A stretch of 64,000 nt of DNA, from the NCBI RefSeq assembly GCF_045037415.1, contig NZ_CP173438.1, one strand, 5' to 3'. A program made the translations under genes and the position numbers. The notes under the pieces are model-generated. The model worked only from the letters and a program-made list of their open reading frames with translations. It was not told where the DNA came from and ran no database searches. Within the stretch, counting starts at the first letter, position 1, and every line of letters begins with the position of its first letter. Shown piece after piece: positions 3,411 to 3,526 of this stretch. Source of the stretch: Escherichia coli. GTDB lineage: Bacteria; Pseudomonadota; Gammaproteobacteria; Enterobacterales; Enterobacteriaceae.

Positions 3411-3526
3411 GAACCAGTTCCCACTGCCAGAGGGGAGGGGCGGGTCAAATCCCTGTGACCTGACGTCTTCCGGACTGCCCGCCCCATCGTTTTTTTATAC
3501 CCGCGAAAAATGAAATTTAACCAGGA

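Follow-up and report, generated by a model that had tools for sequence, protein, structure and literature searches.

One question raised by this locus is whether the GC-rich inverted repeat lying between an HNH endonuclease gene and a small terminase gene (the interval 3411-3526 of the 64,000-nt stretch of Escherichia coli DNA that was analysed, hereafter the window) marks a phage cos site and, if so, whether the repeat itself is what the packaging proteins recognise. A preliminary description of this DNA had proposed a candidate cos or packaging site at this place. The HNH ORF matches Pfam HNH (PF01844, E 2.3e-16), carries the RefSeq label "HNH endonuclease", and its product is 38% identical over 65 aa to gp74 of HK97 (E 2e-10). 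The small terminase (TerS) falls into PF05119 (E 1.1e-20), and the large terminase (TerL) is 25% identical over 520 aa to HK97 gp2 (E 3e-29). The genes of the portal, an HK97-family prohead protease and the capsid lie downstream of terL. HNH, terS and terL share one strand (+), with the site between the HNH gene and the terminase genes, and the gene context given in the preliminary description (HNH, then small terminase) was correct, TerL and the portal coming next. The coordinates of all features are collected in Table 1.

Table 1. Features of the cos region and of the neighbouring genes, in window coordinates.
Feature	Position	Strand	Remarks
Lambda-type lysis cassette	995-2274		
DUF2441 ORF, 202 aa	2380-2988		Between lysis cassette and HNH gene
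HNH endonuclease gene (gp74-type accessory packaging nuclease)	3060-3410	+	ORF; directly upstream of cos
Upstream box GGGGAGGGGCGGGTCAAATC, G-run plus TCAAATC	3432-3451	+	Conserved columns in 45 distinct relatives; contains the left arm
Left arm of inverted repeat, GGGGCGGG	3437-3444	+	Repeat search
Spacer, fixed 20 nt, variable sequence	3452-3471	+	Low information; gapless and collinear in relatives
Conserved GGAC 5' of the cohesive end	3472-3475	+	GGAC[CT]GCC highly conserved
Cohesive end (cosN equivalent) TGCCCGCCCC, 10 nt	3476-3485	+	Identical to the end mapped in SfI; includes the right arm, 3478-3485
T7 run, TTTTTTT	3490-3496	+	Member of the conserved downstream block, not a terminator tail
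Best-conserved block TTTTTTATACCCGCGAAAAATGAAATTTAA	3491-3520	+	+6 to +35 from the nick; likely TerS recognition site (cosB equivalent)
Small terminase gene (terS), P27 family / Pfam Terminase_4	3536-4030	+	ATG at 3536; Shine-Dalgarno AGGAG at 3523-3527
Large terminase gene (terL; ATPase plus nuclease), HK97 gp2 homologue	4027-5760	+	Pfam TerL_ATPase, TerL_nuclease

Several observations concern the surroundings of the interval. In phage SfV the HNH gene follows Rz/Rz1 with no intervening gene, unlike the window with its DUF2441 ORF. Directly after this ORF, at 2989-3010, there is a short terminator-like sequence (CGCC TTCT GGCG followed by six Ts), which is below the size covered by the terminator scan. 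For positions 5757-5918, the RefSeq annotation of an identical genome gives a hypothetical protein. Rfam matches in the window comprise two host small RNAs, rseX (34265-34354, minus strand) and dsrA (42688-42774, plus strand); these place the right end of the prophage to the left of ~34 kb and indicate a chromosome of the Escherichia/Shigella type. At gathering thresholds Rfam gave no match inside the interval, and ARAGORN found no tRNA or tmRNA gene across the 64 kb. A tRNA-like element, considered because GGGTCAAATCCC superficially resembles a tRNA T-arm, was rejected, since both searches were empty in the interval.

Repeat search and direct reading gave a perfect 8-bp inverted repeat whose arms, GGGGCGGG (3437-3444) and CCCGCCCC (3478-3485), are separated by 33 nt. 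The right arm had been located properly in the preliminary description; the left arm had been set 4 nt too low, at 3433-3440. The repeat had also been described as ending in a T-run, and here the repeat is real but its ending is not: the T-run starts 4 nt past the right arm, and since ATCG stands in between, the repeat does not end directly in it. A perfect inverted repeat of at least 8 bp arose in 5.9% of mononucleotide shuffles of 3411-3526, and for all-G/C 8-mer inverted repeats with loops of up to 40 nt the count in the 64-kb window was two, versus 0.36 ± 0.62 in first-order Markov resamples. Measured against chance, the 8-bp repeat is merely modestly unusual. The predicted folding of the interval barely exceeds that of shuffled sequence, with z = -1.41 for the RNA fold of all 116 nt and, for 3430-3500, z = -2.07 as RNA and -1.94 as DNA. 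The window as a whole contains 111 perfect 8-mer inverted-repeat seeds (loops of 3-40 nt) versus 41 ± 9 in first-order Markov resamples, a general excess that is presumably made up of terminators and operators. A second, imperfect inverted repeat (10 of 12 positions complementary) is formed by CGCCCCATCGTT at 3480-3491 and AACGGCGGGGCG at 3544-3555 and connects the cohesive end with the start of the terS coding sequence. It is probably a coincidence, because its second arm encodes the invariant N-terminus of TerS (A-G-T-A-G-R).

The identity of the right arm was established by comparison with phages whose ends are mapped. Run-off sequencing of SfI virion DNA with primers in the HNH gene and in terS left a 10-nt gap with respect to the prophage, TGCCCGCCCC, which is the cos cohesive end (PMC3636060). 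Window positions 3476-3485 are identical to this end, and the last and first bases of the SfI record correspond to 3485 and 3486. The coincidence means that the right arm of the repeat is the cohesive end itself. As the SfI stretch is absent from both run-off reads, the ends would be 3' extensions, in agreement with the 10-nt 3' overhangs of HK97 (PMC9410871, Figure 1 legend; PMC11331095), although PMC9410871 is inconsistent on this length and gives 12-nt 3' overhangs in its discussion. The annotated 10-bp cos-site of phage phiP27, CGCCCGCCCC, is at the homologous position in the same alignment columns. The HK97 record ends with TGAC followed by CGCCGCCAAA and restarts with GTTTGAATTT, again in the columns of the window overhang. 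For phage VarioGold a 10-nt 3' overhang, CGATCGGTTC, was mapped with PhageTerm (PMC9658991), and a Comamonas prophage (L142) has CGACCGGTTC in the overhang columns, 9 of 10 positions being identical to the VarioGold overhang. In SfI, phiP27, HK97 and the VarioGold-like L142, the overhangs are all 10 nt long and directly follow a conserved GAC. The proposal of a candidate cos or packaging site is thus borne out by an overhang identical to the SfI-mapped end, with the phiP27 and HK97 ends in the same columns. The comparison with cos regions of HK97-like phages, which had been suggested as a check, gave collinear 10-nt ends and, as described below, a common 34-nt spacing of the upstream box.

From these alignments, the top-strand nick is predicted between 3485 and 3486, and the bottom-strand nick, positioned by the 10-nt overhang, would lie opposite 3475/3476. 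On direct reading, the stretch that holds both nicks (3470-3490) lacks two-fold symmetry. This asymmetry agrees with a proposal made for HK97, according to which each strand is cut by an activity of its own (PMC11331095).

Similarity to the Shigella phages extends well beyond the overhang. Megablast against phage records gave 94-99% identity to SfI, SfII, SfIV, SfV and several Escherichia and Salmonella phages, and the stretch between HNH and terS is 97-100% identical to SfI, SfII, SfIV and SfV. The cohesive-end consensus [TC]GCCCGCCCC, with GGAC before it and the T-run/ACCCGCGAAA block after it, is present in the window, and no more than a single substitution separates positions 3472-3511 from SfI, SfV and SfII (in SfI it is base +1, G there and A here). 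Like the window, SfI, SfV, SfII and SfIV have the cohesive end TGCCCGCCCC (mapped in SfI), the G-box, the T-run, the ACCCGCGAAAAATGAAATTTAAC block and the order HNH, P27-family TerS, TerL; cos itself shows no substantial difference, the other changes being scattered substitutions within the 20-nt spacer and just past the HNH stop codon. The window, in turn, stands apart by its E. coli host and by the DUF2441 gene ahead of the HNH gene. The Stx2e phage phiP27, which gives its name to the P27 TerS family, shares the architecture, the spacing and the GGGGAGGGGCGGGTCAAATCCC box, and its cos-site differs from the window overhang in the first base alone. Identity to phiP27 over the interval is ~74%, and the downstream block reads ACACCCGCGAAATTAAAAATTTCAGG in phiP27 versus ATACCCGCGAAAAATGAAATTTAACC in the window. 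The records of SfV (NC_003444.1) and SfIV (NC_022749.1) begin with TCCGGACTGCCCGCCCC, equivalent to window position 3469 and 7 nt upstream of the SfI-mapped overhang; that of SfII begins at the HNH stop codon and that of ST64B at the equivalent of 3521. Since these starting points differ, record starts in this phage group are unreliable as cos positions. The exact ends and the activity of the prophage in the window are read from homology to such phages.

The window holds the prophage only in part, which would be compatible with a defective remnant whose cos is a functionless fossil. This is unlikely, because none of the ORFs for HNH, TerS, TerL, portal, protease and capsid is truncated and viable phages have an identical cos sequence. 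Besides, of 5426 complete E. coli genomes, 1165 (~21%) carry segment 3300-3700, with at least 95% identity in most of the carriers; E. coli THO-006 (NZ_AP022533.1) matches the segment at 100%.

Once the cohesive end was located, the part played by the repeat could be judged from its conservation. A scan of viral contigs with the single TerS protein returned 80 contigs, all of them with TerS 98-100% identical, a set that is useless for covariation between lineages; hence, an alignment-based TerS scan of species-representative genomes was used instead. It gave 47 loci from Escherichia relatives, Xenorhabdus, Gilliamella, Providencia and Comamonadaceae, with TerS mostly 47-97% identical to that of the window and one outlier at 31%. 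The alignment was anchored on CCGCGAAA, the upstream 100 nt were gapless, and the information profile was taken from 45 distinct sequences. Three blocks were conserved. The first is the G-box (3432-3451); the second, the motif GGAC[CT]GCC at 3472-3479, spans the predicted position of the bottom-strand nick; the third and strongest is the T-run/ACCCGCGAAAAATGAAATTTAA block at 3491-3520. The two arms of the repeat therefore lie in different conserved elements.

If the complementarity of the arms were itself recognised, as a two-fold symmetric site or a cruciform for a dimeric terminase or HNH component, it should be kept where the arms change. All relatives combine a G-rich upstream box with a C-rich cohesive end on one strand, so some complementarity (3-8 nt) is always present, and perfect 8-bp repeats are found not only in the window but also in L097, L107 and Gilliamella (TAGGGGGG/CCCCCCTA). 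Nevertheless, the longest perfect complement between G-box and cos end has a mean of 5.22 nt when both come from one locus, the same as the 5.12 nt obtained by random pairing across loci, and a per-column pair count revealed no compensatory pattern between the arms among the 45 distinct relatives. Lineages with the overhang CCGCCGCC retain the GGGGCGGG box, which leaves 5 complementary bases. Left arms are also broken in close relatives: with the CCCGCCCC end unchanged, some of the 80 viral contigs (TerS identity of 98% or higher) read GGGGGAGG, GGGGCGTG or GGGCAGG in the left arm. Together with the weak DNA fold and the asymmetric surroundings of the nicks, these data make a recognition site of this kind very improbable. 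It is harder still to believe that the repeat and the T-run form a Rho-independent terminator that ends the lysis/HNH transcript ahead of the terminase genes: a GC-rich 8-bp stem is followed after 4 nt by T7 and does appear in the MFE structure of the RNA fold of 3430-3500, but the consensus terminator scan makes no call at the site, the loop is 33 nt (versus ~3-8 nt expected) with a 4-nt gap from stem to T-run, three of the eight pairs (3437-3485, 3441-3481 and 3442-3480) are kept in only 14, 16 and 18 of the 45 relatives, the T-run is conserved with or without the stem as part of the 30-bp block, the fold of the full interval is the weaker one, and late transcription in lambdoid phages has to pass through cos into the head genes.

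The absence of covariation between the arms, the variable left arms and the stem-independent T-run thus speak decisively against both a terminator hairpin and recognition through complementarity. The recognition or hairpin role that had been implied for the repeat is not upheld, as the right arm lies within the cohesive end and the left one within a separate box. The 8-bp repeat is the product of a chance complementarity, in the lineage of the window, between its G-rich box and its C-rich cohesive end.

The strongest of the three blocks lies just past the nick. Its positions carry 1.5-2.0 bits each, and those of the T-run (3492-3496) 1.7-2.0 bits, in the 45 distinct relatives; it is nearly invariant from Escherichia to Comamonas/Comamonadaceae, in loci whose TerS is 47-100% identical. 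In Xenorhabdus and Photorhabdus ~60-90 nt are inserted between the block and the start of terS, and the block stays beside the nick. This indicates that block 3491-3520 goes with the nick and not with the ribosome-binding region. In HK97 the minimal site of TerS spans +15 to +29 past the nick (CTAACCCGATTTTTT), where arginine contacts T16 and the G of position 21 and an A-tract is also involved (PMC11331095). HK97 TerS at cos is proposed to stall the incoming motor, after which TerL, stimulated by gp74, cuts (PMC11331095; PMC9410871; PMC10359639). By comparison with this site and with the stalling model, 3491-3520 is likely the stretch recognised by TerS in the window. The first ~30 residues of TerS (MAG..G.SGR..KP) are nearly invariant in the L097-L142 set, a pattern consistent with a DNA-reading arm at the N-terminus such as HK97 TerS has. 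The two small terminases have no detectable sequence similarity, and the TerS-side DNA of HK97 is unrelated to that of the window save for a short ACCCG/A-tract resemblance, whose distance to the nick is 4 bp greater in HK97.

The upstream box behaves differently, as it is common to both groups. The window and SfI, phiP27 and HK97 all have 34 nt between the last base of TCAAATC and the top-strand nick, the HK97 counterpart of the box, GGGGGGGGGATCAAATC, ending exactly 34 nt ahead of that nick. The HK97 overhang differs from that of the window, and the box lies ~270 nt from the end of the HNH gene in HK97 versus 21 nt in the window. When viral contigs were searched for the HK97-type 15-mer GGGGGGGATCAAATC, it was found between HNH and terS/terL in ~110 of 120 loci among the matches listed, with HNH upstream on the same strand, terS ~100-170 nt downstream and terL ~590-650 nt downstream. 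At these loci the box and the GAC/overhang core precede at least 4-5 different downstream DNA modules, which accompany an HK97-type TerS, a close P27-type TerS or a distant P27-type TerS (25-33% identity). In two of the loci (L251 and L226) the left half is of the HK97 type and the right half is not. This suggests that cos is a mosaic with recombination joints at or beside the nick; the same left half (G-box, spacer and GAC with overhang) is found with unrelated right halves, and thus moves together with the nuclease side, whereas the right half follows TerS.

What the box does is addressed here through its position and distribution. We infer that it serves the nuclease side of cos, in the positioning of TerL or HNH, or the termination of packaging. 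Inspection by eye for an IHF binding site gave no fit to the WATCAANNNNTTR consensus in TCAAATC or its surroundings, either in the window or in HK97. The box is not mentioned in the HK97 papers PMC11331095, PMC9410871 and PMC10359639, and the TerS-binding fragments used there are without it; a Serratia phage paper and the cf-PICI preprint mention neither the G-box nor a cos of the SfV/SfI/phiP27 type. A further, tentative reading, to which we give a little under even odds, would make the box a cos sub-element, so far uncharacterised, that HNH-dependent HK97-like systems require: a TerL/HNH docking or termination signal that acts independently of TerS. This would account for the fixed 34-nt spacing, for the presence of the box in both the HK97 and the SfV/P27 groups despite their unrelated TerS proteins and TerS-side DNA, and for its persistence over mosaic joints where the TerS-side half of cos was swapped.

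The cos of lambda (cosQ-cosN-cosB) follows the same logic, with a nicking site, a TerS site on the first-packaged side and, some tens of bp upstream on the last-packaged side, a short conserved element. The upstream element, cosQ, is reportedly needed for termination, and the G-box may be regarded as loosely analogous to it. Lambda has 12-nt 5' overhangs, a partly symmetric cosN and the gpNu1/gpA terminase, with no known HNH partner; the window, in contrast, has a 10-nt overhang, an asymmetric nick region, an HNH partner and a TerL with HK97-like TerL_ATPase and TerL_nuclease domains, and there is no sequence similarity between the two sites. The polarity of the overhangs also separates them, being 3' in HK97, probably 3' in SfI, and 5' in lambda.

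Taken together, the comparisons make it highly probable that 3432-3520 is the cos site of a lambdoid prophage of the SfV/SfI/phiP27 type with an HK97-like packaging module (HNH, P27-family TerS and TerL), and that the repeat is incidental. After induction, TerS would bind the near-invariant block, with ACCCGCGAAAAAT as its core, just past the nick. TerL, helped by the HNH protein, would then nick the top strand at 3485/3486 and the bottom strand 10 nt upstream, generating 10-nt cohesive ends made of TGCCCGCCCC and its complement. Packaging would proceed rightwards, with the terS gene entering first, up to the next cos, where the DNA would be cut again. The G-run/TCAAATC box would be an additional conserved cos sub-element held at a fixed distance from the nick, and the repeat would act neither as a hairpin nor as a symmetric protein site nor as a terminator.

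The interval is, therefore, another copy of an already described cos, that of SfV, SfI and phiP27, within the HK97-like HNH-dependent class, and only the upstream G-run box common to HK97 is a mildly new point. A striking GC-rich inverted repeat can, as in this case, be an accident of two adjacent protein-recognition elements. If the box is indeed needed in cis, the HK97 models of cos cleavage and termination would gain an extra component. The assignment of 3476-3485 as the cohesive end fixes the true boundaries of the virion genome for a prophage family that includes the Shigella serotype-converting phages, and it is of use for prophage annotation, for the interpretation of phage-end mapping (e.g. 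with PhageTerm) and for predicting transducible plasmids or islands that bear the ~90-bp cos cassette.
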